DNA of 64,000 bases. It comes from Clostridia bacterium (GTDB lineage: Bacteria; Bacillota; Clostridia; UBA1212; UBA1255). The translations under genes and the position numbers were made by a program. Below are positions 3,656 through 63,423 of the stretch, piece after piece. Below the pieces are notes generated by a model that was not told the origin of the DNA, did not search any database, and worked only from the letters and a program-made list of their open reading frames with translations. Position 1 is the first letter of the stretch; each line of letters opens with the position of its first letter. The stretch lies in NCBI GenBank assembly GCA_017560225.1, contig JAFYOJ010000090.1:1386-65385 (forward strand), read 5' to 3'.

Positions 3656-3985
3656 TTAAACCCCTAATTTCGCCGCAGAAATTTCAGAAATTTCCATTTC
3701 AATTTCTTTCTCAATGCGACGAATATCTCTTTGAATATCCTCTAATGTCTCATTGGCTTTCACATGTTCATGGTGTCTGTGAGAAAAATCACGTCTGTAA
3801 TGCTGTCCGTTATTTCCGTTATTGTTATTGTTGCCATGACCGGCATTCTGTTCCCCCTCTTGTCTTTGGGGATTATTGTTATAACGGTTATGATTGCGGT
3901 GTCCGTGATGACGTCTGCGTCCACCGTTATGCCCACCTTGACGGCCATTTTGTTCCCGATTTCTCTCCTCGTTCCCTTCTGCCAT
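3656..3985 (-). CDS. His/Asn/Gly/Arg-rich low-complexity protein with C-terminal coiled-coil; hypothetical
   Basis: ATG start, 109 aa. N-terminal two-thirds is NGGRRRHHGHRNHNRYNNN...GHGNNNNNGNNG. C-terminus EDIQRDIRRIEKEIEMEISEISAAK is a predicted coiled-coil. No recognizable family. Confidence 0.45.
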   Translation of the reverse strand: MAEGNEERNREQNGRQGGHNGGRRRHHGHRNHNRYNNNPQRQEGEQNAGHGNNNNNGNNGQHYRRDFSHRHHEHVKANETLEDIQRDIRRIEKEIEMEISEISAAKLGV

Positions 3986-4019
3986 TCAACTTCACAATCC
4001 TTTCTTTTCTAATATGTCT

Positions 4020-4589
4020 TTACAGGATAGAATAACCAAATAAAATCCGTTCTTCCGTTAAAGACGTAAATACTACGTAATCGTCCCCCTCATTTCGATG
4101 CACCCGACCTTGCTGTGCCTCCTGTTCATAGTAAGCACGCAGTGCCAGTTCTTTGAATGCATCGGATTCTTGTACCGGTCCCAGCACACAATCCCGATAT
4201 AGCGATTCCGAATTCTCATACAAAAGCGGTTCGTCCATAGCAGCATCATACCGCTCAATCTGCTCCGGGAAAACGGAAGCAATAATCAAACAACGGGGCT
4301 TCCGGTACGTGCCCAATCGATAGGATTTAGCAGGGACAAGAGATGCAAGATAGCGTTCTCCCGTAAACATCCCCTCTCCTACGAATGCCTTGTTATCTTC
4401 CAACTGAAGTTTCAGCACCGCCGTACCACGCTTGGTTAAAGCGTAATCAGCCGGATGCAAATAGGCTTCCATATAAGGATGTTCTGTCCCGTACACAGAC
4501 ACACACCCAGCGGCATTATGGCTTAACTTAAGACCATACGTAACCGCATCTTCGGCAATCTCTTCAGTTGTAAACAAATAAGCCTTCAT
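4020..4589 (-). CDS. hypothetical protein
   Basis: ORF with ATG at M5 (MKAYLFT...) preceded by AGGTG RBS. No recognizable motifs. Confidence 0.5.
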   Translation of the reverse strand: MKAYLFTTEEIAEDAVTYGLKLSHNAAGCVSVYGTEHPYMEAYLHPADYALTKRGTAVLKLQLEDNKAFVGEGMFTGERYLASLVPAKSYRLGTYRKPRCLIIASVFPEQIERYDAAMDEPLLYENSESLYRDCVLGPVQESDAFKELALRAYYEQEAQQGRVHRNEGDDYVVFTSLTEERILFGYSIL

Positions 4590-4620
4590 GGATTCACACA
4601 CCTATTGAGAAAGGTTCTAA

Positions 4621-6990
4621 TTATACCTCCCTATTATACCTTGATTTTGCGTAAAATGCAACGAAACAAAATGCAGAAATCCCGGCTAATACAATCCACA
4701 AGCAGCCATTGGGCGGAGCTTCTTCTCCCGTAGTAGGATTCACAGGAATTTTTCGGTTCACAAGAGGAGTTCCACCATAAATGGTACCGTTTTCAACCCG
4801 GTAAATAGTTTCATCCAACTGATATTCTTCCGCTGTTACAATTTCCTGCACATATAAATCAACGGGAAAATACGTAAATAGGCAAACCCGCCCACTTTGA
4901 TCAGGACTGGCTACACACAAAAGGTCACCGGGATTCACCGCAGTGCCATCCGGGGCGACGTAACTGTCATTGGCATATAACCCAAACCAGACTTCTTGAA
5001 ATCGGCTTGCGTCGCCGTCTTCTAACTTTTTGTCAAACATAACCGGGTACTTTTTCAAAACATTCTCCACCTCTACCACGCAAATTTCTTCCGGCAAAAT
5101 CGTGACCAAAAGAGGGGACAAATCGCAGGGTGCTTCATACCCTTGCGCCACCACACACTCCACCAATTGATAGACGCCCGGATATAACGTTCCGGACAAA
5201 TAACGACCTTCGCAGCAACGAATCTGTTCTACCCACGTTCCTGCCGGAATGCGCACTGTCCCATCCTCTCCGCAAATGTCCGCATAGGCATATACGTCGA
5301 AAGCACACCCCTCTAATTCCACGCGATCCAATGTAGGCTTTTTAAATCCGCAAATTTCTTCCACCGACACAATCCCCAGCCCGGTTTTTGAAATTTCAAA
5401 TTGCCCCCGAAGGGCTTTATTTTCAAGGAAAACATTTGTGGTTTCGCCCGCTTCAATTTGGCAGGTAACCGGATCACACAAGGCATATCCTTTTGTATGC
5501 TCGTTCGCAAGTTCCGTAACGGTGTACGTGCCAATGGGCAATTCTGAAAGGAGAATACCGCCTTGTTCATCGGTAACAACCGTTTCGCAATATACGGTTT
5601 CCGACCCATAAGTTCCCACAATTTCAAACGCAACACCTGCACGCGACGTCATACACCCCTCAAAAGTTTTGACAATGGATAACGCCCCGGTTTTCAACCG
5701 ATTTTGAAAAACTACTTGCGTAGTAGTACGGTCCTGTACTTCCACACGCTGAGAAGGGGGCTGCTGCCAAGGAGTTTCATCGGCTAAAAGTTCCGACACC
5801 TGATACCAACCGGCAGGAAGCCCCGTTAGAAGAGCACAACCATCGTCGTTGGTTTCTACCAACCGGAGAAATTCAACATTTTCGCCTCGAACTTCAAACG
5901 CATATCCGGAAAGTGCTCCAATTTCCACCTGTTTCCGAATTTGGATATCGCCAATTTCCACGTAATCTTCCGTTTGAAGTGCCATCACACCCACTTTCCC
6001 CGCCGCCTCTGACACCGTGGATTTGCAGGCAACCACCTGGGTAGCACCACTCCCGTCGGAGAAGAACAACATTTTCTTACCACCGTCCGGAAGTTCCTTA
6101 TGAATCTCTACGGCCAATAAATTTTCAATGGGCTGTACTGACTCAAAGCGATATCGATACTCTCCTAAATAGGAAACTTGCAACCAGGGAATCGTGTTGC
6201 CTTGTGTGTCTGACAGGGTAAAATGTGCTCCTGTACAATATTCATCCTGCAGTTCCAACACATACCGGCCATTTTTCTCATACTGTACCAACGTTTCTCC
6301 GGTTTGACGCAAATCGCCGGAGGGTTGCACAAAAGAAGGAAGTTGCAAATAGGTCTCCATTTGCGTAAGAATCCAATGATAACAACGTTCCGCAGGGCGG
6401 TCTTTGATCATATTATAATAAATATCGGCTTCAACTTGCCCATTGTTCTGTCTTGGGAAAACGCCCCGGCGAATCCCTTGTTGATACTCCCACACCAGCA
6501 CTTGCGTGGCTAGCCAATAGTCATCTTCATTGGTATCGGGCACAGGGGAAGCTTTTCCATCTTCATATCCAAATTGAAGCGTCAACCAAATTCCTTGCCG
6601 AGCCGCCTCCGGCAGCCGTTCGTAGTAGTCATTTGGCATTTCCAAATCTTCTTGCATATATTTGTCCCCACCGTAATAATAAGGAAGTCCGGTACCGATA
6701 CAATAGACAGAATGAATGGTGCCATCATAGCAAGCAATGCGTAATTTCTTTTGGATGTGACCACCCGCCGTATACTTGTATGAAGCCGTACCATCCTCCT
6801 CGTAGAGCAGAATCCAATAATCTTGATCCGCCGTATATTTCTCCCCATCGCTGCCAATGCAATCTACCATATTAGGATCCCATATTTCATTCCACGCCGG
6901 TTCTTGGGCGTAGACCATCCCATTCCCTACGATTCCACCAATCAACAAAATCACCATCTGCACAATACAAATTACTTTTTTCACAAACAT
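4621..6990 (-). CDS. Cell-wall-anchored adhesin with N-terminal thioester domain (TED), Cna-B/SpaA-like stalk repeats and C-terminal NPxTG sorting signal
   Basis: Signal peptide (MFVKKVICIVQMVILLIGG). TED signature WLATQVLVWEY (TQxxVW Gln motif) with upstream Cys candidates (SVYCIGTG, RIACYDG). Repeated about 100-aa beta-rich segments follow. C-terminus is VNPTTGEEAPPNG + hydrophobic helix + KSRYNREV, a cell-wall sorting signal of the class-B type NPxTG. Start set to ATG at M5; the track M1 is TTG. Confidence 0.7.
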   Translation of the reverse strand: MFVKKVICIVQMVILLIGGIVGNGMVYAQEPAWNEIWDPNMVDCIGSDGEKYTADQDYWILLYEEDGTASYKYTAGGHIQKKLRIACYDGTIHSVYCIGTGLPYYYGGDKYMQEDLEMPNDYYERLPEAARQGIWLTLQFGYEDGKASPVPDTNEDDYWLATQVLVWEYQQGIRRGVFPRQNNGQVEADIYYNMIKDRPAERCYHWILTQMETYLQLPSFVQPSGDLRQTGETLVQYEKNGRYVLELQDEYCTGAHFTLSDTQGNTIPWLQVSYLGEYRYRFESVQPIENLLAVEIHKELPDGGKKMLFFSDGSGATQVVACKSTVSEAAGKVGVMALQTEDYVEIGDIQIRKQVEIGALSGYAFEVRGENVEFLRLVETNDDGCALLTGLPAGWYQVSELLADETPWQQPPSQRVEVQDRTTTQVVFQNRLKTGALSIVKTFEGCMTSRAGVAFEIVGTYGSETVYCETVVTDEQGGILLSELPIGTYTVTELANEHTKGYALCDPVTCQIEAGETTNVFLENKALRGQFEISKTGLGIVSVEEICGFKKPTLDRVELEGCAFDVYAYADICGEDGTVRIPAGTWVEQIRCCEGRYLSGTLYPGVYQLVECVVAQGYEAPCDLSPLLVTILPEEICVVEVENVLKKYPVMFDKKLEDGDASRFQEVWFGLYANDSYVAPDGTAVNPGDLLCVASPDQSGRVCLFTYFPVDLYVQEIVTAEEYQLDETIYRVENGTIYGGTPLVNRKIPVNPTTGEEAPPNGCLWIVLAGISAFCFVAFYAKSRYNREV

Positions 6991-7619
6991 CCCCCTTCCC
7001 AATCCTTCTCAAAAACCAACAAAGCGGCATACAAAACCACTTCCATTTCCCCAAAACCTTTACAGTCTTGCACGATTTCCTCCAATACATCCGCCTGTAC
7101 CATCGGGTTGCTCCCCGCCGCATGCATCACTTTCTGCAAACAAGTCCGAATCGCCTTTCCGTGACGTCCCCGGGGACTTTGATATAACAGAAGTTGAATT
7201 TGTTCCAATCCCGTAAACTTATCACTCATCAAGGCCCCTTCTACGTGAAGCAATTCATCCGGCACCTTCCCAAACAGCCACGTATGGACCGGCAAGCTAC
7301 CCAGCGCCATCAACAGCTGACGAAGACAATGCCGTTCTTCTAAAAGATAGGGCATCATAAAAATCAAATTAACAAACATACGTATAACCGGTGCGTATTT
7401 AAAGGTGTTCCAAAGACGTTCTGCCGCTTCCGAAACTGCATCCGAATCGCCTTGTTGCAAAGCCTGTAACCACGGCAGCAAATAATACGCCGCTACCTTC
7501 GGCAGTCCCACGGAGCAACGAGTATATACCTCATTTGCAGAAGAGGCTCCGGCTAAACCATAGCAAAAAATACGGATGGTTTTAGGAATTTGCCGAACAA
7601 ACATAAAATGACGAATCAT
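6981..7619 (-). CDS. hypothetical protein
   Basis: 212-aa ORF with ATG start directly abutting the upstream stop (TAAATG). No recognizable motifs. Confidence 0.5.
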   Translation of the reverse strand: MIRHFMFVRQIPKTIRIFCYGLAGASSANEVYTRCSVGLPKVAAYYLLPWLQALQQGDSDAVSEAAERLWNTFKYAPVIRMFVNLIFMMPYLLEERHCLRQLLMALGSLPVHTWLFGKVPDELLHVEGALMSDKFTGLEQIQLLLYQSPRGRHGKAIRTCLQKVMHAAGSNPMVQADVLEEIVQDCKGFGEMEVVLYAALLVFEKDWEGGCL

Positions 7620-9200
7620 TTAACCGATCAAACGCTCAATGATTTTTTCATACTGCAGCGCATCTTCCCGACAGGCTTCTGCCGGCTGTACAGGAAGACG
7701 ATTTTTCTTGCGCGTTCTGCTTTCGCTGTGAGTCACTTCGCCTAAATACAGTTCTTTACCCACAATTTTTGCCAGTTGATCCCGTTTCGGGGACGCGCCT
7801 TCACAATAGTCCCAGGCCACAAAACGCACTTTAGAGAAAACCAAGCGCTTATTGTCCGCCAAGGACACATAATAATCCCGATAAGACTCCAAATCCTCCA
7901 CACTGGAAAGCGGCGTTGTAATCACGCAGCTGCAATAGCGCATAAAACAGTCCACAACAGCAGGATCATCCTGTCGCTCTGCCGTAAATAACACCAAATC
8001 AAAATTTCCGTGACACCAATCAAAAAACTGATCAAAATCCGACTCCGTACGCAACGGAAGCTCCAGCAGAAGTTTCCCCGACCCTACAAACAACTTGTCC
8101 GAGCAAGCGTGAAGCAAGCCCCGCTGCACCCACTGATTACTGGTACGCAAATACAAAGACTGATGATCAAAAATAAAAGGATAATAATCTTCACAAACCA
8201 ATTCGCTCAATTGATTTAAATTTAAAAAATAATATTCCAAATTGCGTTGCCCTTTTTCCGAAACTGCGAATACGCCGGTGCGAAGCCCTAACAAATCCGA
8301 TGCAACGTGGGCCATTTCACTGGCGAAACAAGCATTGCAGTCCACCATAACCGAATATTTCCGATAATTCCCCAGCACACGAACACCATCCTGTCGTTCT
8401 GCCCGCACCGTATCCAAGGACAATATTTTCTTATCTTTTCTCCTTTTTCTCCGGGCAACATCAATCAAAGCTTCTTTCAATTCGCCCACGTGACCATACC
8501 GGCCGGCGGGGTCCGGATGAATACACTTCATAATAATCTGCCCGCAAGGAAAATCCCCTTCCAGCGTCCCCGGATATTCCTCCTTCCCTGTAAGCATCGT
8601 GTATAAAATAACACCCAGAGAATAAATATCACAGGTTATATCCGGAGATCCGAAAATCACCTCCGGCGCCGTATAGTAACAGCTGCCTAATTTTCGCGTT
8701 GCAGAAACTGCGCCGGACGACTCCGATTCTTTCTCCAGCCGAATGGCCGCCTCGTAGTCCACCAACGTGATCCCGAAGATACCGGTTTCAACGTCCCCCC
8801 GAATCATAATATTGGCGGGTTTCAAATCCACAAAAGCAATAGCGCCCCGCTTATTCCAATGAAGAAAAGAAAGTGCGTCACATAGCGCCTTTAGAATCTC
8901 CACGCTTTGCTCAAAAGAAAGGGCACCCTCGCGACGAATCAAATCCGAAAGGGTTTCTCCCGGAATCCATTCTTCTGCTAAATACCGAACCCCATCTTCT
9001 TCAAAAGTACAAATAAATTTAGGCGTATACGGACTGTCAATTCCCGTCAACATCGCAATTTCATTGTTCGCCTGTTCATCTCCCCCACGCCAACATTTCA
9101 GAAAAACATCCTGTTTGCTACCGTCATCATAGGCGCGATACGTACGATGGGTACACAAAGTTTCCCGTACCGTAAAACGGTTCCAGATTTGCTCACACAT
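7620..9200 (-). CDS. Atypical Ser/Thr protein kinase-like domain fused to a C-terminal degenerate ParA/MinD-like domain
   Basis: Kinase subdomains are recognizable: VFLKCW (VAIK Lys), FVDLKPANIMI (HRDLKPxN with the catalytic Asp but no His-Arg), LVDYE (DFG position), YYTAPE (APE). The Gly-rich loop is absent. The C-terminal 300 aa has the ParA/MinD-type motif DLVLFTAERQDDPAVVDCFMRYCSCVITTPLSSVEDL without a Walker A. Start set to the first ATG (M38) with GGGGAGAG RBS; the track M1 is TTG. Confidence 0.6.
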   Translation of the reverse strand: MCEQIWNRFTVRETLCTHRTYRAYDDGSKQDVFLKCWRGGDEQANNEIAMLTGIDSPYTPKFICTFEEDGVRYLAEEWIPGETLSDLIRREGALSFEQSVEILKALCDALSFLHWNKRGAIAFVDLKPANIMIRGDVETGIFGITLVDYEAAIRLEKESESSGAVSATRKLGSCYYTAPEVIFGSPDITCDIYSLGVILYTMLTGKEEYPGTLEGDFPCGQIIMKCIHPDPAGRYGHVGELKEALIDVARRKRRKDKKILSLDTVRAERQDGVRVLGNYRKYSVMVDCNACFASEMAHVASDLLGLRTGVFAVSEKGQRNLEYYFLNLNQLSELVCEDYYPFIFDHQSLYLRTSNQWVQRGLLHACSDKLFVGSGKLLLELPLRTESDFDQFFDWCHGNFDLVLFTAERQDDPAVVDCFMRYCSCVITTPLSSVEDLESYRDYYVSLADNKRLVFSKVRFVAWDYCEGASPKRDQLAKIVGKELYLGEVTHSESRTRKKNRLPVQPAEACREDALQYEKIIERLIG

Positions 9201-9343
9201 ATAACTCTCCCCCAATAATTTTTTCTCCCTGATTTTCAGGGAAGCACATTGTAGCACTCCCCATTTTCCTTGTCCACGCGTCTTAGCATTATTTCCCAAA
9301 ATGTACAACAAATGAACTTTCGATCCGGCGGCAAAACAAGGAA

Positions 9344-9371
9344 GGACGCCGTTTTTAAACCAACGGCGTCC
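9344..9371. terminator. GC-rich hairpin (ggacgccgtt-loop-aacggcgtcc) between cwlD and the kinase-like gene; putative intrinsic terminator
   Basis: 10-bp perfect inverted repeat with an 8-nt loop, flanked by T-rich tracts on both sides. Confidence 0.4.
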
Positions 9372-9402
9372 CTAAACGTTTTTTCTTTTATTTCCCAAAA
9401 CT

Positions 9403-10221
9403 TTACAATTCTGCAGGGCTCATAGTGGTAAAATAATCATCAATTCCCATCTTAATTGCCTCTGCAATACGTTTTTGATAATCCGCATTGACCAAACGCA
9501 TTTCTTCCGCTTCATTGGACAAAAAACCACATTCCACAATAGTGGTAGTCACTTTACAATCCTTTGTAATCAAGATATCTTCTGCTTTCAACAGCGCTTC
9601 TCGCGTATTGGACTCATCCAAATGTCCCCGCAAAGCATCTTGCAATGCAATGGCCAACTTCTTACTGGATACAGACTGCTTGGTATAGAACGTTTGGGCA
9701 CCGGAATACCGTTCATCGGTAAAAGCATTCAAATGAATACTGACCACAATATCCCCACCACTTTCGTCCATCATTTTCTTTCGTGCCTGCAAATCCTGCC
9801 GCCGTTTTCCCGTCATGGACAAATCCGAATCCGTGTAGTTCAAAATATCCTCACTACGGGTTAAAATAACCGTATATCCGTCTGCTTCCAACAGTTTCTT
9901 CGTTTCTAACGTAATGGCTAATGTAATATCTTTTTCTTTCGCACCGCTGAATTTGCTCACTGCACCGGGATCTTCGCCCCCGTGGCCCGCATCCAATACT
10001 ACCGTCTTCCCTGCTTGCGTCAGCGTTTCCACCCACTCCAAAGAAACATCCGCATCGCCCGCAGGTTCCGCCATAGACGAAGCATTTTCCCCGGAAACCA
10101 CCTGAACACCCACCAAGGTGACCACCAGCAGCAAAATCAAACCCAATAACATTACATTTGTTTTTCTGAATAAAAGAATCAACGACGACACGCCTTTCAC
10201 ACAAATTGCTTGATTCAACAA
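9403..10221 (-). CDS. cwlD: N-acetylmuramoyl-L-alanine amidase (amidase_3), CwlD-like germination-specific
   Basis: N-terminal membrane anchor plus the VVLDAGHGGEDPGAVS amidase_3 signature. The start is ambiguous: track M1 is TTG, ATG at 10152, TTG at 10182. Confidence 0.7.
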   Translation of the reverse strand: MLNQAICVKGVSSLILLFRKTNVMLLGLILLLVVTLVGVQVVSGENASSMAEPAGDADVSLEWVETLTQAGKTVVLDAGHGGEDPGAVSKFSGAKEKDITLAITLETKKLLEADGYTVILTRSEDILNYTDSDLSMTGKRRQDLQARKKMMDESGGDIVVSIHLNAFTDERYSGAQTFYTKQSVSSKKLAIALQDALRGHLDESNTREALLKAEDILITKDCKVTTTIVECGFLSNEAEEMRLVNADYQKRIAEAIKMGIDDYFTTMSPAEL

Positions 10222-10236
10222 TATGTGCGCAAGGGG

Positions 10237-11067
10237 TTATATATGCATAATATCTTCGTATTGACCGCCTAATTTATAAATAGCAGAGGCAATTTCTCTA
10301 CACCATTCCATATTAAGGGGCATCTGACGAACCAAGGATTCCAAATATTTACGCAGCACAAGAATGGCGCCGGGATTGCCGTAGTCCCCCAGCAATACCC
10401 CCAAGAACTGTTTCTCCTCTGCGTCTTTCGCTTCTTTAAAATACCGTTTCAAAATGCCATACAGGGTATCACGACGAATATCCGACTCACAAAGGTAATT
10501 CAAAAGGCCAATTTGAATGCCGCGATGGAAGGTTTCTGTGGTCAAGAAACACTCTAATTGTTGATTTTTTGTATGCAGCAAGCCTTTCATCAGTTTCTCC
10601 GGCACAAATTCATGTTCCAAAGGAATCTTCGGCAACCATTCTACACAAAACTCCCCAAAATCCTCCGGATAAACACATTCCAACAGGAAAAATGCCTCCG
10701 CAAACTGATTCATACGCCGCACCGTAGGGGCATCCACCTGTTCTTCCCAATCCAAAACCAACAAGTCTTCTGCAAGATAGGTTTTGAGCAAAGCCTTGGT
10801 CTTCTCGCCATCCCACGCCGCACTGTTTCTGGCCACGTGCAAAAGTACGGTATCGCCCGCTTCTAATTGGGTTTGCAAGATTTGAAAGCATTCTTCCGGC
10901 GTCCATGCAGGCAGCATTTTCTTCTCCTGAATCCACTGTTCTTCGCATCGCTCCCGTAAAATGGCATCATTCCAACAAGGTACTCCCTCGGATAAATATG
11001 CGAAGTAGTACGCCTCAAAATCTTTAAAGATTTCTTTTGGGAAAATGGGTGGTTGCTGTTCAGCCAT
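10237..11067 (-). CDS. hypothetical protein
   Basis: ATG at M3 with AGTGAGG RBS. Helical, acidic. No recognizable motifs. Confidence 0.5.
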   Translation of the reverse strand: MAEQQPPIFPKEIFKDFEAYYFAYLSEGVPCWNDAILRERCEEQWIQEKKMLPAWTPEECFQILQTQLEAGDTVLLHVARNSAAWDGEKTKALLKTYLAEDLLVLDWEEQVDAPTVRRMNQFAEAFFLLECVYPEDFGEFCVEWLPKIPLEHEFVPEKLMKGLLHTKNQQLECFLTTETFHRGIQIGLLNYLCESDIRRDTLYGILKRYFKEAKDAEEKQFLGVLLGDYGNPGAILVLRKYLESLVRQMPLNMEWCREIASAIYKLGGQYEDIMHI

Positions 11068-11077
11068 TTTCAATGCC

Positions 11078-11737
11078 TCACTGTTTCTTCATGGCTTTCT
11101 TACGTGCCTTTTCTTCTTGTCTGATCCGCTTGGGTTTTGGATAGAAAATGTTATGCAAGAATTTATTCTTAATATCCCACTTGATAATCCGTTTCCCGTG
11201 GAAACCCATATAGTAACCAAATGTAGAAAACACAATGATCAAGAGACCGGGAATCAAACAGTTCCAATAGGATACAGACGGAATGGGACAAAGTTCCCCT
11301 ACCGGTCCTTCAATCAAGCGGAAAAACCAGTAAAAGGGCATGCACAACGCCAGACGCACATAAGCGTTCAATACTTCAATCACAAATTTAGGGTGGGACA
11401 CAATTACGTATTCATTGGCTACCCCAATCATCACGTATTCAAGCAGCATAATAATTACATACGCAATGGCGCCACAAACCAAGCCTTTCCAAGGATAACG
11501 CACCCATTTATAGGGTTTCCGGTCATCCTCGCCAAAGCCATGCATAATACAATACGTTATGATACAAAAAACAATAGTAGAGAAAAGGGTATAGCTACTA
11601 AACCAAAAGTCCGGTGTCATATACCCGCTCAGCACAATGACAATTAAAGGGAATGCAGCCCAAGCCAGTACTACGGTTAAGACATAGCACAGCAGAACAT
11701 TTCTGATTCCCTTTAAATGTGTCTTGAAATTCTCCAC
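11078..11737 (-). CDS. hypothetical polytopic membrane protein
   Basis: GTG start with perfect AAGGAG RBS (6-nt spacer). Five or six predicted TM helices. Lys-rich C-terminus. Confidence 0.5.
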   Translation of the reverse strand: MENFKTHLKGIRNVLLCYVLTVVLAWAAFPLIVIVLSGYMTPDFWFSSYTLFSTIVFCIITYCIMHGFGEDDRKPYKWVRYPWKGLVCGAIAYVIIMLLEYVMIGVANEYVIVSHPKFVIEVLNAYVRLALCMPFYWFFRLIEGPVGELCPIPSVSYWNCLIPGLLIIVFSTFGYYMGFHGKRIIKWDIKNKFLHNIFYPKPKRIRQEEKARKKAMKKQ

Positions 11738-11747
11738 AAATAACTCC

Positions 11748-14420: not shown

Positions 14421-14434
14421 TGTCCTTACCTCCA

Positions 14435-16743: not shown

Positions 16744-18351
16744 TTATTCCCCGGAAGGTTCCTGAGAAGATTCTTCGGTAGGCTCATCAGAAGGCTCCTG
16801 GGAAGGTTGTTCCGTAGGTTCATCAGAAGGCTCTTGGGTAGGCTCTTCCGTAGGCGCATCAGAAGGCTCCTGGGAAGGTTCTTCCGTAGGTTCTCCGGAA
16901 GGCTCCTGAGAAGGTTCTTCTGTAGGTTCTTCAGAAGGTTCTTCGGAAGGTTCCTGGGAAGGAATGTCAGAAGGCTCTTCTGTCGGTGTTCCGGAAGGTG
17001 TCGCCGTAGGTTGTGTAGACGGCGGCGGTGACCATACCGGTTTAAGCGTAGGCGTTTGTGTAGGCTCCGAGGTGCTCGCATCTACGGTTTCTGATGCTGC
17101 AGGAATCGACGGAAGTGCCTGTTCGCCATCATTGGGCGTACTCAAATACTTATAACCAAGCACAATAAACAGAATAACAATAATCAAGCAAAGGGCGAAC
17201 ACAATCACTGCCGGCCAGATTTGCGCATCGGGAGAATCCGAATCTAATCCCAAGAAATTCTTTACCTTCGCCATAAAACCGGAGCTCTGCTTAGCCGTGC
17301 GGCGAGAAGAAACACGTCTGCGAACCGGCGCTACCGGCGCTACAGGATCCGCTTTCTCTTCGTCCATCACAAACAAAGAGGTCTTGGAAACAGGACGACT
17401 CGATGCAACACGGTCTTCCTGCGTACTCTCTTCCGTTCTCCAAGTATTGGGACGGGTATGAACATCTGCAGAAGCCATGGTAACGCCTGAAATGCTTGCA
17501 GGATCCACAACCGATTTGGGTGTATCCATCGCTGTCAGTACAACCAAAGTCGTATCTTCTTGAAAACCGGTTTCCGATACTTCTGCCATCAACTTATCAA
17601 TAATGTCAGCAGCAGTTTGGTTTTTCGAAAGAATTGCCTGAATATCTTCCGCAGTAATACTTTCACAAAAGGCATGGCTGCAAATCAAGAATACGTCACC
17701 TGCTTCTGCCGTCATTTCAAAAACAGCAGGATTCAACGGAGACGAGTCACTATGGATGCCCATATACTGCGTCAATTTGTGTCTTTTCGGATGGGCTGCC
17801 GCACGCTCTGCAGGAATCATGCCCGCATCCACCATCTTCTGGGCTTGCGTATGATCTTCAGAAATTTGCTGCAGCAATCCATTTCTAAAATGATAAATTC
17901 TGGTATTGCCCAAATTGGCGGTAACTACCCGCTTCCCTTTCACACAAATCATGGCAAGGGTCGCACGCAATTGGTCGTCCCCTAAATTAGATGCCTTTGC
18001 CTTAATCGTGTTATTTGCGGATTGGATATAGGTATTTACAAAACCCACCATATCCATACCTGCGGTAGATTTCCCTGCCTCTCGGGCTGCTGCAAGTTCC
18101 TGCAATTTCTTGCCATGGAACTTAAACAGGGTCTTCATAGCAGACAATGAAGCTTCTTCACTGTACGTATCTGCACCAAAGCCCTCACTAATGGCATATA
18201 ACTGAAGTCCTTTCTGATCTTTCTTCTGTGTCAGCAGGACTTGGGAGGAACAAAATTCCTCGGTTATGTATTTGGAATTTAAGTAGAAATTGTTGCTATT
18301 GTAGCTTTTCTTCTTGCCCGGACAAGTCGCCGCGGCTGCCCTATAAATCAT
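16744..18351 (-). CDS. Membrane-anchored PP2C-like (PPM) domain protein with a C-terminal Pro/Glu/Ser/Thr-rich tandem-repeat tail
   Basis: N-terminal about 270 aa aligns to bacterial PP2C (PrpC/Stp1): [25 protein letters not shown]. Several metal-binding positions are substituted (DGxGG -> EGFGA, GDSR -> GNTR, CSDG -> CSHA). A single TM helix ([23 protein letters not shown]) follows. The C-terminus is about six copies of [12 protein letters not shown]. Confidence 0.65.
16747..17010 (-). repeat. Roughly 36-nt in-frame tandem repeat (about 6-7 copies) encoding [12 protein letters not shown]-type units
   Basis: Visible nucleotide periodicity (ggttcttc[a/c]g[a/t]aggctcctg[g/a]gaa...) at the 3' end of the PP2C-like gene. 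Confidence 0.7.
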
Positions 18352-32427: not shown

Positions 32428-33489
32428 TCAACCCATTTTGCGTTTCAGGCGAATATCATCTCCGCAAAAACGAAGCACATCAAACGTGCCCAGTATTCGG
32501 GAGGCCACACGTTCTCCATAGGTATCAAATAAGTTCTTCGGTGTCATATTGGTGGTAATAATCGTCTTGCAAGGATGCTTTCGTCCATTTAATTCACGGG
32601 TATTCAGAATTTCCAACAATTCTTCATACCGGGTGGCAGTCTGTTTCTCCGAGCCCAAATCATCAATAATTAAAAGCTCTACGTTCAAAATTAAGTCTTT
32701 CAGCACTTGCAGCATCTCTTTCTCCTCATCGGAAGCAAACGCTGCCGCGGCAAAAGGCTTAAACAACGTAGAAACGGGCATATACAATACCGGAACACCT
32801 TGTTCCAGCAAACCGGAAGCCACACAACTACTGAAGAATGTTTTTCCCACGCCACTTCTGCCCACAAATAATAAATTGGGTGTATCGGAGCAGGTAAAAC
32901 GTTCCACAAATGTCTCACAAATCTCCTTCATCTTCAACATATGTTGGCGAGGAGATTGTGGGATTCCGTAAAGTTCCGCATTGGGTTCATCCGGATACAA
33001 TGAAGCGTCGAAACGTGCAAACGTATCTAAATCCGAAGGTAAATTCGCTTTCTCCCGTAATTTCTCCACTAAAATAATTTTTGCGCAGTTACAAGGAGTC
33101 CCCATAGGTGCATCTTTCAAGAAACCGGTATCGTCACACAACGTACACGTGAAAACAGGACGAAAATCTTGTTCCGTCAAGTGCAGCTGATCCAACAAAG
33201 CCTGCTTGCGCTGTTTCAGCCGTGCAACGGATGCTTCCACTTGCACCGCATTTCCTTGATCCAGTTCCGGCAGCAATTGTTTCATAGTTTCCACAACTTG
33301 ATTCGGCAAAGGTTTCCGCAATTTCAAATACACCCTTAGGATGTGCAACGCATTTAATTGTTCTTCGATATACTTCAGTTCCGGACATTGAACGTATGCT
33401 TTCTGACGCTTTGTTTCTCCCAGCGCTTTCGCCCGCGCCCTGCGTGCAGCAAATTCCTCCTGCAAAGCTTTTCGAATTTCGTGAATCAT
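32428..33489 (-). CDS. dnaI: DnaC/DnaI-type helicase loader (IstB-like AAA+ ATPase)
   Basis: Walker A GRSGVGKTF, Walker B LLIIDDLG, N-terminal Zn-binding Cys pairs (CTLCDDTG...CNC). ATGA overlap with the upstream DnaD-domain gene. Confidence 0.75.
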   Translation of the reverse strand: MIHEIRKALQEEFAARRARAKALGETKRQKAYVQCPELKYIEEQLNALHILRVYLKLRKPLPNQVVETMKQLLPELDQGNAVQVEASVARLKQRKQALLDQLHLTEQDFRPVFTCTLCDDTGFLKDAPMGTPCNCAKIILVEKLREKANLPSDLDTFARFDASLYPDEPNAELYGIPQSPRQHMLKMKEICETFVERFTCSDTPNLLFVGRSGVGKTFFSSCVASGLLEQGVPVLYMPVSTLFKPFAAAAFASDEEKEMLQVLKDLILNVELLIIDDLGSEKQTATRYEELLEILNTRELNGRKHPCKTIITTNMTPKNLFDTYGERVASRILGTFDVLRFCGDDIRLKRKMG

Positions 33490-34469
33490 TGAGAATCACT
33501 CTCCTTGTATAAACGGTTAAAGAAATCTTGGCTGTACTGACGTTGGCTATGGTTATCCTTCTGGGCCACATCCCCACTGCCGGAATTTCCGGTTCCACTC
33601 GGTTTCTTTCCACGCGCAGCAAGGTGCGCTTTCACATCTTGTGCCGTGCGCAATCCCAGGTCACACCAATCTTTCAAAATTTTCTCATACAGATTAAATG
33701 TAGGACGCGCAAAACCGGCGCCCTCTTTCAAAGCTAAGGCAATAATTTCCCAATTGTAGCCGTATGTATAGAACCAACGATGGACATATTCACTCTGATA
33801 ATCGGTAAGGGGTGCTTGGATATGTAACCTCTTCCGAATTTCCTTCCGAATCTTGTCAAATTCCTCATAAGAGCGGAAATACTGCTCTAATTGCTCCGCG
33901 GTGCGAATATGATGCTGCGCACCCCAGCTTTCTGCCACTTTTCGCATATAAGGTTTGGTAACTGCATTATTTTGGGCACAATGTTGGAAAAGCATAAATA
34001 CCACTTCCGGAGAAAAGCCGTATTTCCCAATCCATAAATCAATCTCACCATACCAAGAATTGGGCATCTGTCCTGAGAAGAAGCGATCACTCACAGCGCG
34101 AATCATTTGGGAACGTGCTTTATCCCCACCATTCTCAGCATCCTCATCCGGGCGTTTCGATGTGCGCGGCCGATAATTTCGGTCAATTTCTTTTCTGGCT
34201 AAGTTCTCCAAATAAATGGAACTACCTTCTGCTGTAACCACGCCGGCAGCACAAAGTTGCACCATCGCCGCATCAATGACAGAACCATCCACATTCAAAA
34301 TGGCCGCCATGGCGTCTTTGGTACATTTTCGACCGGTTTCAGTCAAATACAGCAAATACAAATAAACCTTTACTGAATTTCCATCCAGCATAGGCAAATA
34401 TTCCTCCATAAAAATATTGCTGATGGCGGTTGTATCCAATAATTCGTCTCGTTTCTTCTCTACTTTCAT
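33486..34469 (-). CDS. DnaD-domain replication initiation / membrane attachment protein (DnaB-like of Firmicutes)
   Basis: DnaD/DnaB C-terminal domain pattern, paired with dnaI as in the Bacillus dnaB-dnaI operon. The track M1 is GTG; ATG at M7 with GGAG RBS is used. Confidence 0.7.
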   Translation of the reverse strand: MKVEKKRDELLDTTAISNIFMEEYLPMLDGNSVKVYLYLLYLTETGRKCTKDAMAAILNVDGSVIDAAMVQLCAAGVVTAEGSSIYLENLARKEIDRNYRPRTSKRPDEDAENGGDKARSQMIRAVSDRFFSGQMPNSWYGEIDLWIGKYGFSPEVVFMLFQHCAQNNAVTKPYMRKVAESWGAQHHIRTAEQLEQYFRSYEEFDKIRKEIRKRLHIQAPLTDYQSEYVHRWFYTYGYNWEIIALALKEGAGFARPTFNLYEKILKDWCDLGLRTAQDVKAHLAARGKKPSGTGNSGSGDVAQKDNHSQRQYSQDFFNRLYKESDSQ

Positions 34470-34483
34470 CGTCCTTGCTCCAA

Positions 34484-35461
34484 TCACATATAGGGGGCCG
34501 TGCCCACCTTCACTGCATGCACCGTAAGTCTTCCTTTTGCACCACCATTAGGTCTATAGCACGTGGATAACGTCAGTACGTCATCCTCCGCGGTCAGTAC
34601 CGTATTGGTTTGAAATTTCGATTTCGCCCCTAAATCTTCAATGAAGGCCAAATAAGCCGCATCATCTCTAAAGTAGGTTTCTATATAATACTCGTCTGTG
34701 GTGGTAATGTAAACAGAATATACGCGCCACATGGTAATGCCTTCTTCTGTAAGCGTGTAAAGGTACCGATGACTGTCAAAGAAATCCTTTTGCAAATATC
34801 CGCGCAATTTCCCGAACACACTTAAATCATTCATGGTGTGGCCGTACACAATGGTATGCCCCTCCATGGTCACCGGATCACACCGATAGTCCAAGAAACA
34901 GGAACCGCTCACCAAATACTGCTTATAAATATTCTTATAAAGGTAGAAGTCGTTATCTTCCGCTTGCATTACATAGTAGCTCACTTCAGAGTCCGGAATA
35001 TGGAGCCAAAATTGAAAATCCGAATTGATTTCTTTCAATTTCTTTAAAGAATCAACAGAAGGAAGCTCCTTTGCCGGATAAGTAACTCGCTCCGGTGTAG
35101 CTAATGGGTAGGACGGCGGTGTGCGTTCCGGCGTAGAAAAAGGTTCCTCCGTAGTCTTCGCAATCAACTGATCAATCTCACTGCGGTGTTCGTTGCCTTC
35201 CACGCTGCCCTTATAATTCTCGCCCAACTGCCCAATGGAGAATAACATAATCGCCAGCATGAGGGATTGGATAAAAATATAGATTGCTTGAGAACGGCGC
35301 TTCTTCTCTGCCAGCTGTCGCATCCGCAATCTTCTGCGGGCCGCATCATGTTCATTAAACCCTTCCACACGACGAATGGCCAAAGTGTAGGATTCTTTCG
35401 TGGGTTTCAACCGTTTTCCCGAGAAAGCCACAATTTTCTTCAATCGAAGCATTTTCTTCAT
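34484..35461 (-). CDS. srtB: Class B sortase
   Basis: N-terminal TM anchor, catalytic His (VYGHTMND), TLSTCY Cys motif and conserved Arg (GRLTVHAV). Overall SrtB-type length and layout. Confidence 0.8.
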   Translation of the reverse strand: MKKMLRLKKIVAFSGKRLKPTKESYTLAIRRVEGFNEHDAARRRLRMRQLAEKKRRSQAIYIFIQSLMLAIMLFSIGQLGENYKGSVEGNEHRSEIDQLIAKTTEEPFSTPERTPPSYPLATPERVTYPAKELPSVDSLKKLKEINSDFQFWLHIPDSEVSYYVMQAEDNDFYLYKNIYKQYLVSGSCFLDYRCDPVTMEGHTIVYGHTMNDLSVFGKLRGYLQKDFFDSHRYLYTLTEEGITMWRVYSVYITTTDEYYIETYFRDDAAYLAFIEDLGAKSKFQTNTVLTAEDDVLTLSTCYRPNGGAKGRLTVHAVKVGTAPYM

Positions 35462-35487: not shown

Positions 35488-37029
35488 TTATTCATAGATT
35501 CTGGTAATCAGACAATCTGCATACGCAGCTTCCGCCCAATTAGTCACAATCATAGACTGCAAACTCTCTCCATAGCACTCTACGGAATAAATTTGCTTCA
35601 CATCACTAAAATCCAATGTTTCAATTTGATTATAACTGCATCGCAAATAGCGAATTTTTGCAAAGAGAGTCACATCCAATTCCGTCAAAGAACAGGATGC
35701 ACAGTCCAATTGTTCCAAGGAAGCAAATGTATCCAATTGAATCGATGTAACACTTTCATTCTCCGCTATGCGAAGAGTAACCAAAGATGGTAATGTTTCT
35801 CCCGTAATCTCCGTTTCCTCAATGGCAGTATCGGAACAATCTAAATATTGCAATTTAGATACTTCACTGTAATCCAACCACCCCAACGGCGTTCCACGAT
35901 AACTCAGCGTAACCAATTCCGGCACTGCGTAAAATGGAATCTCCGTCAACTGTGTTTCTTCTACAATCAAACGCTTCAATCCGGGCACGTTGGTCAAATC
36001 CAACGTTTCCAACGGAGTGGAAGAAATTTCCAATTCCACCAAATCCGTCAGCCCCACCGGCGCAAACTCTGTCAATACCGCATTTCGAATCGTAAGAGAA
36101 GATAATGCGGTAAATTTCTGCAAATCCCGCTCCGGAAGCGTCAACGTACAATCTTCAATGTGCAACGCGGTAATGACCTGCAAATCCCGTCTTAATACCT
36201 GACTATCCTGTGTGTACTGGTCATAACGGCCATCCGTGTTATGCTTTAATAAGAATTCAATAGCAGCTTTGCGAATCCCTTCATTTTGAAGCTCCACCAC
36301 ACTGAGCCCATCCATAATCGCCTCGTATCCGGTGAAAGGAACTTCTTTATTGGACAATCGAGAACCGGTGATCTCCGGCGCCAAAATTTGTCCATATAAA
36401 TATGTATCTTGGCAAGTAACGGTGGCATAGGGCGCCAGTAATGTTCCGGTAAAAATGCAATTGGTTAAATCCACCGAAGTAGCTTCATAACAATTAATCA
36501 GCACCCGGGAAGCATACCGCACAGAATCATCTCGAGAAAGTATGTAATAATCAGACAGATCAATTTCTTCCCCCGCTAAATTAACCACCACATAGAAATA
36601 ATTATGTTCGGAATTCATCCAAATGTGGTCAAAATTTTGAAGGGTGAAATCATTCTCACACAACGCATTGCTATCTGCGTGAAAGATACTAAACTCCGGA
36701 TTTTCTTTCGAGATAAAATATAGGCCGCCCTTCTCCCCCTTGGAAGAAGCATCCTCCGTCAATTCGGTCCAAACCTCTGCCGTAGCGTCCAAAGAGGCAT
36801 AAGCTTCTGAAAGTTCTTTGTAGTTCAAGGCGCCGGAAAGCACATCGGAAGCAGCGTCACCTACAGAGGCGTTTACAACACTGTCCCCGCGCAACAAAAC
36901 GTTCTCGTATAAGTGCACACCGTAAGACAGTACCACCATAACAAACACCAGTACAACCAGTGTTAGAAGCGTCAGTACAGTATCCATCTTATGCTGTTTC
37001 AAAAAAGCAATTATCGGTTTCCGTTTCAT
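35488..37029 (-). CDS. Membrane-anchored leucine-rich-repeat (LRR) protein
   Basis: N-terminal TM (LTLLTLVVLVFVMVVL), then 10 or more LxxLxLxxN/CxxL repeats (LTELDVTLFAKIRYLRCSYNQIETLDFS...). Start set to ATG M15; the track M1 is TTG. Confidence 0.6.
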   Translation of the reverse strand: MKRKPIIAFLKQHKMDTVLTLLTLVVLVFVMVVLSYGVHLYENVLLRGDSVVNASVGDAASDVLSGALNYKELSEAYASLDATAEVWTELTEDASSKGEKGGLYFISKENPEFSIFHADSNALCENDFTLQNFDHIWMNSEHNYFYVVVNLAGEEIDLSDYYILSRDDSVRYASRVLINCYEATSVDLTNCIFTGTLLAPYATVTCQDTYLYGQILAPEITGSRLSNKEVPFTGYEAIMDGLSVVELQNEGIRKAAIEFLLKHNTDGRYDQYTQDSQVLRRDLQVITALHIEDCTLTLPERDLQKFTALSSLTIRNAVLTEFAPVGLTDLVELEISSTPLETLDLTNVPGLKRLIVEETQLTEIPFYAVPELVTLSYRGTPLGWLDYSEVSKLQYLDCSDTAIEETEITGETLPSLVTLRIAENESVTSIQLDTFASLEQLDCASCSLTELDVTLFAKIRYLRCSYNQIETLDFSDVKQIYSVECYGESLQSMIVTNWAEAAYADCLITRIYE

Positions 37030-37048
37030 GTACCTCTCCCAAAATGAT

Positions 37049-37138
37049 CTAACCGTCGTTATGGGCCGCAACCATCAGTGCCATTACAAAAACACCCATA
37101 AATCCGCCAATCAGAAGCCCACAAAAAAATTGTAACAT
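37049..37138 (-). CDS. Putative 29-aa hydrophobic micropeptide (MLQFFCGLLIGGFMGVFVMALMVAAHNDG)
   Basis: ATG preceded by GAGGTG RBS (6-nt spacer) in the cpsB-LRR intergenic region. Single predicted TM helix. Not in the ORF track (below the size cutoff). Confidence 0.3.
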   Translation of the reverse strand: MLQFFCGLLIGGFMGVFVMALMVAAHNDG

Positions 37139-55922: not shown

Positions 55923-56023
55923 AAAGATTCCCCACTTTCTGTTCGGTTTATTTTACAACCCGTGAGATAAAAATACAATACTGTGTATAAAAAAAGTTAT
56001 AAACTCAACACAATGCCCTTGCG

Positions 56024-57187
56024 TTACAAACCCAACTCGTCTAATAACGCTTGCATCTCATCTGCTTTTTCCCGGGAAACATTATGATTGTACAACAATT
56101 CTCTCATAGACCTTTTGGCATGACCACAAAACACTAATTTAAACCACCGTCGAACCTGCATAACCGGTGTGAGCCACTTGTGTTTTTGAAGAATTGGATA
56201 ATGCCGCTTAATTAAATCATACGGAATCACAATTTTTGAAAAAGCGTATTGCAAACGCCCACCTAACTTTTGTTGGCGGAGAACAATTCTATTTTGCAGC
56301 GTTCCGTAAACACCTCCGGAAAGAATAAAGTATTCCATCTTTTTCGTGCAGGCATTACCGGGCTGATTATCAAACCACATTTCGCCAAGAAGTGTTGCAT
56401 TTCTGGCAAATTTACCCACCCCACCTTTTTCAAGGAGTTCCTCATACTTATCTAAATCCTTTTCAGGAAGATGATTCAATATCCACAAATCTAATACCGA
56501 GCGAATACCACAACCGCCGTTTCGAAAATGCTTCGACATATGAACAACATGATAAAAATAGAACAAATCAGCCGGCATTTCCATTTGATATAACCATCCC
56601 GGACGAGCAGTTGCCACATCCCAAAGATTATCAAAAATCCCTGCTATTTTTCCGGTATAATCATCTTCTATAAGGAGAAAGTGCAATTCAATGTGATAGC
56701 CGTTTTGTGAATACAGAGCCACGTCGTGTAAACATCGTGAGCGTTCAACAAATTGCAACTCACCAACTAAAATGGAAACAGCATTTTCCAAATCTTCAAC
56801 TTTCACTAATATGTCAAGATCGCTACAAGTTCGCATCCACGGTTCCGGATAATAGTTTTGCATCACAGCACCTTTTAACGGAATAAATGAAATTTTTGCC
56901 TTTTCAAAGGCATTACAAATACGCACCCGTTCATACTGTTGATTTTCATGTCGATATATGGCCCGAAAAATATACTTTTGCAGCCGAGATTTGCTTTCAT
57001 CATTTACCAAACCATTTTTTATTGCGCCTAACGCTACCAAGTGTGCCAGATCGTGTTTTTCTGCCAAGCGAATAATGTTTGAAAGCAAGTTTTCAGATGC
57101 AATTTGCTTGCTTTCGCTATTCATCGGTTTATTTTGAATAACTGATTGAAGAATTGAAAAAAATATATCTCGCTCTTTCTCGTTCAT
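56024..57187 (-). CDS. Uncharacterized nucleotidyltransferase (NTP_transf_5-like)
   Basis: About 390 aa with the DLDILV nucleotidyltransferase Asp motif, a family common in polysaccharide loci. Start at ATG M24 (AAAGGAAG RBS). First gene of the AT-rich island. Confidence 0.55.
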   Translation of the reverse strand: MNEKERDIFFSILQSVIQNKPMNSESKQIASENLLSNIIRLAEKHDLAHLVALGAIKNGLVNDESKSRLQKYIFRAIYRHENQQYERVRICNAFEKAKISFIPLKGAVMQNYYPEPWMRTCSDLDILVKVEDLENAVSILVGELQFVERSRCLHDVALYSQNGYHIELHFLLIEDDYTGKIAGIFDNLWDVATARPGWLYQMEMPADLFYFYHVVHMSKHFRNGGCGIRSVLDLWILNHLPEKDLDKYEELLEKGGVGKFARNATLLGEMWFDNQPGNACTKKMEYFILSGGVYGTLQNRIVLRQQKLGGRLQYAFSKIVIPYDLIKRHYPILQKHKWLTPVMQVRRWFKLVFCGHAKRSMRELLYNHNVSREKADEMQALLDELGL

Positions 57188-57240
57188 AGTAATGAACTTC
57201 CTTTCAACAATACATTCACGCGCAATCCGTATGGTAAATT

Positions 57241-58347: not shown

Positions 58348-58348
58348 T

Positions 58349-59464: not shown

Positions 59465-59477
59465 AGCGGTACGCTCC

Positions 59478-61487: not shown

Positions 61488-61489
61488 AA

Positions 61490-62248: not shown

Positions 62249-62268
62249 GCAAATCCTCTTTTCTGTTT

Positions 62269-63396: not shown

Positions 63397-63423
63397 AGTC
63401 AACCTCTAATGTCCAAAGTAATG

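Follow-up and report, generated by a model that had tools for sequence, protein, structure and literature searches.

On the minus strand of a 64-kb stretch of DNA, hereafter the window, taken from contig JAFYOJ010000090.1 of the Clostridia bacterium assembly GCA_017560225.1, a gene at 4621..6990 encodes a surface protein with a thioester domain (TED). A gene for a protein called here p212 and a gene for a Ser/Thr kinase lie directly upstream of it, and a class B sortase is encoded elsewhere in the window. The TED gene occupies a minus-strand open reading frame (ORF) at 4621..7002, with its stop codon at 4621-4623. According to the ORF list, translation from the ATG at 6990 gives 789 aa, and this start sets the residue numbering used throughout; an alternative GTG at 6984, used by an identical public protein (P0001), gives 787 aa. 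The gene is supported by the ORF list, by Pfam matches to TED and SpaA and by its orthologues. A search of 5.8 billion proteins returned only 13 full-length orthologues (46-100% identity), all with TED and SpaA, and beyond these more distant TED/SpaA proteins at no more than 30% identity. A single new protein was added when the TED region by itself served as query in a further, word-indexed search.

In the alignment of the orthologues, the stretches that are invariant or nearly so are VYC97[IV]G, ATQ163xxxWEY, SDGSGxTQ318VVxC, the stalk residues, and NPxTG together with the AFYxKSRYN tail. The C-terminus is missing from one truncated orthologue, and NPxTG and KSRYN are kept in those that retain it. 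The TED identity is already in public annotation, because MBR5280089.1, a protein from a Clostridia metagenome-assembled genome that shares a 90%-identity cluster with the window protein, is named by NCBI 'Cys-Gln thioester bond-forming surface protein'; the window protein is one more member of a large known family. Its residues 1-29 (6904..6990, minus strand), made up of MFVKK, a hydrophobic core and VYA-Q, were judged by eye to be a Sec-type signal peptide, and the pattern is kept in orthologues. In the AlphaFold2 (AF2) model the N-terminus forms a helix that is followed by a disordered linker. The mature protein contains 21 cysteines.

Thioester domain and stalk

A thioester domain followed by a CnaB/SpaA stalk had been proposed in a first-pass annotation of this DNA, and both were found again when hidden Markov model searches were run. 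Pfam TED (PF08341) matches residues 95-212 with 42.6 bits against a gathering cutoff of 22 (E = 8.7e-11), and Pfam SpaA matches in two stretches with 78 bits against a cutoff of 23.1 (E = 6.3e-22). The string WLATQVLVWEY, which the annotation had singled out, is also present; it contains the TED signature TQxxPhiW as T162-Q163-V-L-V-W167 (6490..6507, minus strand), located in helix alpha2 beside the predicted bond, with T, Q and W invariant. Cys residues occur upstream of this motif, as had been stated, and include that of VYC97IG.

The part of that annotation that has to be given up is the choice of the motif Gln, Q163, as the thioester Gln. In solved TED structures the Gln and Trp of TQxxPhiW adjoin the thioester, neither is essential for the bond, and the bonded Gln is found on strand Q far downstream, about 150-200 residues past the Cys (PMC6194298). 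Q163 was rejected as bond partner on this ground, and Q318 is predicted in its place from the published structures, from its invariance among 31 sequences and from its alignment to Gln266 of BaTIE, a TED protein of Bacillus anthracis. The 31-sequence alignment joins the family to 20 far more distant TED homologues from genome contigs and spans 19-84% identity; its invariant residues include C97, T162, Q163, W167, E168 and Q318. Only the bond-forming Cys/Gln pair is universally conserved in TEDs (PMC6194298). In the close family two Gln past C97 are invariant, Q236 and Q318, and across the 31 sequences Q318 is the only one invariant downstream of the head. Q236 (LVQ236YEK), which stands at a class I-like spacing, is not conserved in distant relatives and was rejected as the thioester Gln.

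When the profile of the 31-sequence alignment was compared with PDB sequences, the predicted thioester Cys, C97 (VYC97IG, codon 6700..6702, minus strand), fell on chain position C40 of BaTIE, which is Cys71, and the predicted thioester Gln, Q318 (SDGSGATQ318VVACKS, codon 6037..6039, minus strand), fell on chain position Q235, which is Gln266. The offset of 31 between chain and protein numbering of BaTIE was set from the isopeptide Lys297 in the family-only profile alignment. The published thioester pairs are Cys71-Gln266 in BaTIE, which is bonded in the crystal structure, Cys296-Gln467 in SaTIE and Cys88-Gln292 in EfmTIE86 (PMC6194298). The Cys-to-Gln spacing is 221 residues here, compared with 171-204 in published class II domains, and the first stalk Lys comes 35 residues after Q318, compared with 31 in BaTIE. 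Two points speak against this pair. A weaker profile, built from the family only, puts Q318 on BaTIE chain position Q224, 11 residues off. Moreover, the Cys motif of TEDs on strand C, [YFL]-C-hydrophobic-hydrophilic, was recognized in V-Y-C97-I-G, but its fourth position is Gly and not a hydrophilic residue; this clade has Gly there, and most distant relatives have Glu. Altogether, the case for Cys97-Gln318 as the predicted thioester pair is strong but not beyond doubt, because conservation and one of the two profile alignments agree on it and the narrower alignment shifts the Gln by 11 residues.

The AF2 models were built on alignments of 13-16 sequences, and the TED model covers residues 31-350 and used 16 sequences (predicted local distance difference test score, pLDDT, 81.7; predicted TM-score, pTM, 0.83). 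In this model the domain (residues ~31-342; 5965..6900, minus strand) consists of a head with a beta-barrel and three helices, an inserted beta-sandwich (residues ~230-311) and a returning P/Q hairpin. Five beta-strands, the fifth ending at C97, are followed by the helices, by the seven-strand sandwich and by the hairpin, whose second strand starts with Q318. The TQ motif is within the long second helix (model residues 125-140, protein residues 155-170), and the class II insertion comprises seven beta-strands (model residues 202-281) between the helix at 169-185 and the hairpin at 274-281/290-298. Class II is marked by a sandwich of this kind, of about 75 residues, between helix alpha3 and the P/Q hairpin, and by the lack of the class I helix alpha0 (PMC6194298). 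A Foldseek search of the PDB with the TED model gave only three matches at E <= 1e-3 (E = 5e-6 to 8e-5), to chains A and C of 6fwy and to 6fwv, all of which are class II TEDs, and no class I TED structure was among its significant matches. For the full-length model (pLDDT 74.8, with 80-94 in the stalk), the best match was complete BaTIE, at E = 5e-26 over ~630 aligned columns, far ahead of CnaB-containing pilins. Points that weaken the fold assignment are the low Foldseek TM-scores to class II TEDs (~0.3) and the confidence of the TED model, which is lowest around C97 (pLDDT ~50-65) and Q318 (~57). The model places the domain in class II, as a BaTIE-like TED. Residues 43-93 (6712..6864, minus strand) also have a weak PDB sequence match (E = 3e-4) to single blades of designed 'Bagel' beta-propellers, which were derived from a cell-surface protein; a beta-propeller reading was rejected as a local hairpin likeness only, and in the model this region is within the TED barrel.

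After the TED, the AF2 model has four all-beta modules (residues 343-431, 432-526, 527-646 and 647-748). Module 1 (5698..5964, minus strand; pLDDT 80-90) is of the CnaB/SpaA type and carries the triad K353/E400/N430, invariant in orthologues; in the profile alignment K353 corresponds to BaTIE Lys297, N430 to Asn373 and E400 to chain position E312. Module 2 (5413..5697, minus strand) is covered by Pfam SpaA over residues 451-524, and its triad K441/E493/N524 is likewise invariant, with K441 aligned to BaTIE Lys384 and N524 to Asp464; E400 and E493 stand at the catalytic acid position of their modules. Module 3 (5053..5412, minus strand; pLDDT 85-94) is Cys-rich and CnaB-like, with the triad K535/E611/N643, whose residues are conserved in every orthologue having that region; K535 corresponds to BaTIE Lys475, and weak profile matches to CnaB2/SpyCatcher surround E611. 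Module 4 (4747..5052, minus strand; pLDDT 85-93) is CnaB-like and all-beta, with a candidate triad K654/E716/N745, conserved F-x-K-x-L-E, YVQE and N745 patterns, and a weak match to the collagen-binding adhesin 7k1u. The triads of modules 3 and 4 were assigned from conserved sequence patterns only, with K535 also aligned to Lys475. The four modules probably self-crosslink through isopeptide bonds, and the protein shows the 'T' and 'I' features of a thioester/isopeptide/ester (TIE) protein.

Sorting signal and candidate sortase

The protein ends in a cell-wall sorting signal (4624..4746, minus strand) made up of N751-P-T-T-G755 (nucleotides 4726-4740), an acidic P2' residue (E756), a hydrophobic segment at residues 764-781, across which the AF2 model forms a helix, and the tail KSRYNREV. 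This is the C-terminus ...KIPVNPTTGEEAPPNGC-LWIVLAGISAFCFVAFYA-KSRYNREV already described in the first-pass annotation, and its description as an NPxTG-type sorting signal stands: the three-part form is present, and the N, P, T and G of the pentapeptide, along with KSRYN, are at least 90% conserved across orthologues down to 46% identity while flanking residues vary. From this signal the candidate sortase substrate peptide is KIPVNPTTGEEAP. Distant TED relatives in other Clostridia have ends of the xPxTG[D] type, such as TPKTGD, IPQTGD, PPKTGD and NPPTGA, and NPxTGE therefore reads as one variant of a general clostridial pattern. Within the window, the TED protein is the only one with a true sorting signal.

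The sortase gene (34484..35461, minus strand) encodes 325 aa with a Pfam Sortase domain, a transmembrane segment at ~59-79, and the catalytic residues H208, the Cys of TLSTC and the Arg of GRLTVH. It had been named as the sole sortase of the window and as class B, and it is indeed the only ORF with a sortase domain and TLxTC; it also passes the NCBIfam equivalog TIGR03064 (167.6 bits, cutoff 153.75). The catalytic domain spans residues 138-317, and the catalytic residues align with H140, C233 and R243 of B. anthracis SrtB (baSrtB), which is the nearest solved relative (2oqw/1rz2, E = 1e-43), followed by the SrtB enzymes of Listeria monocytogenes, Clostridioides difficile and Staphylococcus aureus.

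The suggestion that NPxTG points to a class B-type sortase fits this relationship, as baSrtB is NPKTG-specific, and the pairing of signal and enzyme remains conditional. baSrtB recognises NPKTG and needs acidic residues at P2'/P3' (DNPKTGDE) (PMC11987632); the TED protein reads VNPTTGEE at the same positions. The five baSrtB residues that contact the P3 Pro and P4 Asn (L106, F121, Y138; Y191, S231) are all identical in the window sortase, and several of them are conserved in SrtB enzymes generally (PMC11987632). Their identity supports compatibility with NPxTG, and specificity is not proven by it. The C. difficile enzyme prefers (S/P)PxTG and cleaves NPKTG less well (PMC5118464). At E240 of baSrtB, which contacts the P2 Lys, the window sortase has Ala. 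Several observations weigh against the pairing: R116, with which baSrtB reads the P3' Glu, is Val in the window sortase; the sortase gene is 28 kb from the TED gene, in a separate operon; none of the TED loci examined has an adjacent sortase; and another sortase may be encoded elsewhere in the genome, beyond the window. Altogether, it is plausible but unproven that the class B sortase of the window is the anchoring enzyme of the TED protein.

The C-terminus could also be read as unprocessed, with the protein held in the membrane by its C-terminal helix and NPxTG incidental. NPxTG differs from the canonical LPxTG, eight residues separate the motif from the hydrophobic segment, the sortase gene is distant, and TIEpLS20, a class II TED adhesin, functions independently of sortases (PMC8092201). 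Such a protein would not be expected to keep N, P, T and G at 90% or more at 46% identity while neighbouring residues vary, and here the three-part signal is complete, distant clostridial TED relatives have analogous xPxTG[DE] ends, and the window encodes a class B sortase with an NPKTG-specific enzyme as its nearest solved relative. An incidental motif is thus improbable. A second possibility concerns what the signal is joined to: like Cpa of Streptococcus pyogenes, which is a TED protein (PMC6194298), the protein could be a pilus tip adhesin that a pilin-polymerising sortase of class B links to a shaft pilin whose gene lies elsewhere. The window sortase does match Spy0129 (3psq, E = 1.2e-16), and Foldseek returns many pilins, through shared CnaB modules. 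That sortase is far closer to the wall-anchoring baSrtB than to Spy0129, the best overall structural match of the protein is the stand-alone adhesin BaTIE, and neither the window nor the surroundings of any orthologue showed a shaft pilin, another protein with a sorting signal, a SipA-like gene or a sortase of class C, all of which makes a place at a pilus tip quite improbable.

The sortase and its surroundings have some features of their own. The enzyme has an unusually long pre-catalytic region, consisting of a basic cytoplasmic part of ~58 aa, the transmembrane helix and a ~55-aa linker. Its gene shares 4 nucleotides with the beginning of a DnaB_2/DnaD-like replication-initiation gene (33486..34487), an unusual companion for it in an operon. 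The gene immediately upstream of that for the sortase, at 35488..37071 (minus strand), has a product of 527 aa that combines leucine-rich repeats with a 'choice-of-anchor A'/pAdhesive_15 domain and has no C-terminal sorting signal.

Upstream kinase and apparent exchange of cassettes

The first-pass annotation had called the flanking genes uncharacterized. This holds as a description, but it leaves out their relevance: the kinase upstream is a conserved partner of the TED lineage, and the locus appears to be a site of cassette exchange. The kinase gene (7620..9311, minus strand; Pkinase 99 bits), whose probable true start is the ATG at 9200 (526 aa), encodes a Hanks-type Ser/Thr kinase that retains the catalytic D/N, the DFG-equivalent Asp and the APE motif. 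Its orphan C-terminal domain of ~300 aa (7623..8549, minus strand) has 31 representatives among 1.84 billion proteins; it has no match among Pfam or PDB sequences, and a word-indexed homology search returned close relatives only. Our impression is that this domain might resemble a ParA/TadZ fold. Between the kinase and TED genes, the start of the p212 gene (6981..7619, minus strand) abuts the kinase stop (TAAATG), and its TGA overlaps the GTG start of the TED gene (GTGA). p212 has no Pfam match and orthologues in the close clade only, and BLASTP and hhalign comparisons with its positional counterparts in the sister clade and in pilus-type loci revealed no homology (probability <1%).

A terminator-like hairpin (9373-9342, minus strand; 12-bp stem, 7 G-C pairs) and, after it, a promoter-like site (9276-9248, minus strand), TGGACA-17-TACAAT with a TG extension, lie upstream of the probable kinase start; both are consensus matches only. 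Kinase, p212 and TED genes apparently form one transcription unit with the kinase first, a model that rests mainly on the abutting and overlapping genes because the counts of promoter and terminator sites in the region are no higher than in shuffled sequence. The association of kinase and TED extends beyond this genome. A full-length kinase homologue with 37-41% identity is encoded just upstream of TED genes in a sister clade (loci L012, L015, L016 and L018), where the TED proteins are only 24-29% identical to that of the window and other neighbours differ. In a metagenome scan seeded with the kinase C-terminal domain, a TED gene was found downstream at each of the seven loci recovered. A literature search returned nothing useful on a link between such kinases and TEDs, or on TEDs of gut commensals.

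Synteny of the whole neighbourhood is kept in orthologous genomes, with relatives at 47-70% identity. In comparison with more distant loci (L036-L041), gene contexts and tblastn searches define a conserved frame (window 3656..11737) with the order p219 - p278 - Amidase_3 - kinase ... p193 - p109 - holB - PSP1. One member of this frame, p193 (4020..4601, minus strand), a predicted cytoplasmic protein, is encoded just downstream of the TED gene. In L038 (39.5% identity) and L039 (35%) a homologue of p193 comes after a pilus-like cluster, and in L040 (25.6%) it comes right after the kinase. The neighbouring p109 (3656..3985, minus strand) has an N-terminal half of low complexity, rich in His, Asn, Gly and Arg, and a short coiled-coil C-terminus; it is conserved beside p193 in close relatives, and L039 has a gene that matches the C-terminus.

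What differs between loci is the interval between the kinase and p193, which holds an eight-gene cluster in L037, L038, L039 and L041, is empty in L040, and contains p212 and the TED gene in the window. The eight-gene cluster encodes an ATPase of ~560 aa (50-55% identical among loci, and matching PF00437 T2SSE in L037), a membrane protein weakly similar to RcpC/CpaB (E = 1e-3, below cutoff), proteins of ~320 aa and ~216 aa, the latter with a faint T2SSF match, and several of 120-140 aa. Its reading as a Tad/Flp-like pilus cluster is tentative because it is based on weak matches and gene sizes. No homologues of these genes were found by tblastn anywhere in the window. Since the shared frame encloses the pilus cluster at those loci and p212 with the TED gene here, the TED gene sits in the slot that holds the pilus cluster in related lineages.

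A third arrangement is found in the sister clade (L012 at 9158-16383; also L015, L016, L018 and L030-L035), where the TED protein is ~830-880 aa long, has no sorting signal and ends in a conserved tail, ...VNRVVNQEKTTDTAFC... Downstream of the TED gene there lie a signal-peptidase-like gene (weak Peptidase_S24) and a pair of Peptidase_M73 (TasA/camelysin-like) genes, and the TED protein may be associated with a TasA-type fibre. This variation suggests that the locus is a site at which surface-structure cassettes are exchanged between lineages. A further step would be to see the kinase, whose C-terminal domain is possibly TadZ/CpaE-like, as a dedicated regulator or organiser of the swapped downstream adhesion cassette, be it the Tad-like pilus, the sortase-anchored TED protein, or the sister-clade set of TED, signal-peptidase-like and TasA/camelysin-like genes, and the TED adhesin as a kinase-controlled replacement of the pilus. 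We regard this extension as rather unlikely. L040 retains the kinase with neither pilus cluster nor TED gene, which argues against a strict dependence between them.

Proposed function and relation to known thioester adhesins

The protein is probably a cell-wall-anchored class II TIE adhesin of an uncultured gut/rumen Clostridia bacterium. What the analysis shows are domain identities, residue conservation, fold class, sortase class and locus architecture; from them we infer bond formation, sortase processing and the pairing with this enzyme, the adhesive role and the kinase link, each of which enters the following scheme as a conditional step. The protein would be exported through the Sec pathway, with cleavage of its signal peptide (residues 1-29). 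Cys97, on a barrel strand, and Gln318, on the hairpin returning from the inserted sandwich, would then react spontaneously to give an internal thioester, beside which Q163 and W167 would pack. Attack on this thioester by a primary amine of the target, for example that of a lysine, would link the bacterium covalently to its target. The four triad-bearing Ig-like modules (residues 343-748) are expected to form a rigid, protease-resistant stalk that keeps the TED away from the wall. At the other end, the NPTTG signal, the membrane segment and the KSRYNREV tail would retain the precursor in the membrane until a sortase, most probably the enzyme encoded at 34484..35461, cleaves the T754-G755 bond and attaches the protein to peptidoglycan. 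Co-transcription with the kinase and p212 would be a hint of regulated display and no proof of it.

This scheme depends on the reactivity of the TED, and the domain could instead be degenerate and non-reactive, the protein binding its target non-covalently or being merely a structural surface protein. The atypical YCIG and the low AF2 confidence at both candidate residues would agree with this, as would a scan of the NCBIfam library, in which the TED protein matched no thioester-domain model at E <= 1 and had a weak MSCRAMM_SdrD match as its sole hit, a result that also counts against the adhesin as proposed. The Cys and the Gln are nevertheless among the few residues that are invariant down to 19% identity, as published for the TED pair (PMC6194298), and loss of reactivity appears very improbable. 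An adhesive role in mating-pair formation for a conjugative element, as TIEpLS20 has for plasmid pLS20, is hardly credible: the protein resembles TIEpLS20 in size (789 vs 778 aa) and in its class II TED and CnaB architecture, but it has a sorting signal, which TIEpLS20 has not, its gene lies in chromosomal housekeeping surroundings (genes for holB, PSP1, a cyclic-di-AMP receptor, an amidase and an electron-bifurcating enzyme) that are syntenic in relatives at 47-70% identity, and Pfam scans of neighbouring genes, a subset of the window ORFs, found no relaxase, type IV secretion system (T4SS) or integrase.

As a wall-anchored class II TIE adhesin, the window protein is most closely matched by BaTIE (BasC/BA5258, 6fwv), which has the same overall architecture of a class II TED with CnaB isopeptide domains and a sortase anchor. 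BaTIE is both its best structural match (Foldseek E = 5e-26) and its best PDB sequence match, and the positions of the thioester Cys/Gln and isopeptide Lys/Asn align residue for residue. The two are only ~18% identical, and they differ in the number of stalk modules (four here, three in BaTIE), in Cys-to-Gln spacing (221 vs 195), in the Cys motif (YCIG here) and in the sorting signal (NPxTG vs LPATG); the window protein also comes from an anaerobic gut Clostridia host and has the 21 Cys of its mature form. The class II TEDs EfmTIE86 (6fwy) and SaTIE share with the window TED the topology of head, inserted sandwich and hairpin. 6fwy is the top Foldseek match of the TED-only model (E = 5e-6, probability 1.00), but with 9% identity and a TM-score of ~0.3, and neither EfmTIE86 nor SaTIE matches the window TED at the sequence level. 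TIEpLS20 (p34) from the Bacillus subtilis plasmid pLS20 is similar in its class II TED and CnaB stalk, and its Cys68-Gln256 pair was likewise predicted, by modelling on BaTIE (PMC8092201). It is plasmid-borne, serves conjugation and has neither sorting signal nor sortase dependence, whereas the window protein is chromosomal and carries a sorting signal. For SfbI and Cpa of S. pyogenes, the same chemistry, a Cys-Gln thioester capturing a target amine, is proposed (PMC4450167, PMC6194298); these are class I TEDs, which lack the inserted beta-sandwich.

On the side of the sortase, the window pair is like B. anthracis SrtB/IsdC (NPKTG) and C. difficile SrtB ((S/P)PxTG) in combining a class B enzyme with NPxTG followed by acidic residues, and class B sortases anchor adhesins in Clostridia too (PMC5118464, PMC11987632). 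The candidate substrate here is a TED adhesin and not a NEAT-domain haem protein as in SrtB/IsdC, sortase and substrate genes are non-adjacent, and the window enzyme is distinguished from baSrtB by its long N-terminal region and by Val at the R116 equivalent. The window protein thus differs from the characterised TIE members in its host, its four-module Cys-rich stalk and its NPxTG signal, for which a class B sortase is the probable enzyme.

Work on thioester adhesins has concentrated on pathogens such as S. pyogenes, B. anthracis, S. aureus and Enterococcus, and the window protein offers a clear class II case from uncultured gut/rumen Clostridia. It comes with precise residue predictions, namely the Cys97-Gln318 thioester, four Lys/Glu/Asn triads and the NPxTG signal, and might find use as the source of a new covalent 'catcher' or of a motif for sortase ligation, or be of interest as a candidate factor in colonisation. 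Of broader interest is the locus itself, in which a rare kinase family and conserved flanks surround interchangeable cassettes; this suggests how Clostridia exchange adhesion structures. It also hints at a regulatory link between kinase and adhesin, a subject on which the literature searches found nothing.

Two other regions of the window were noted. A gene at 16744..18351 (minus strand) encodes a PP2C-like phosphatase domain followed by a long Pro/Thr/Glu/Ser-rich 'PT' repeat tail, and an orthologue is found at the same relative position in L027. Across the last 8 kb (56001..64000), G+C content falls from 0.45-0.50 to 0.38-0.40, and this part may be a horizontally acquired or surface-polysaccharide region.

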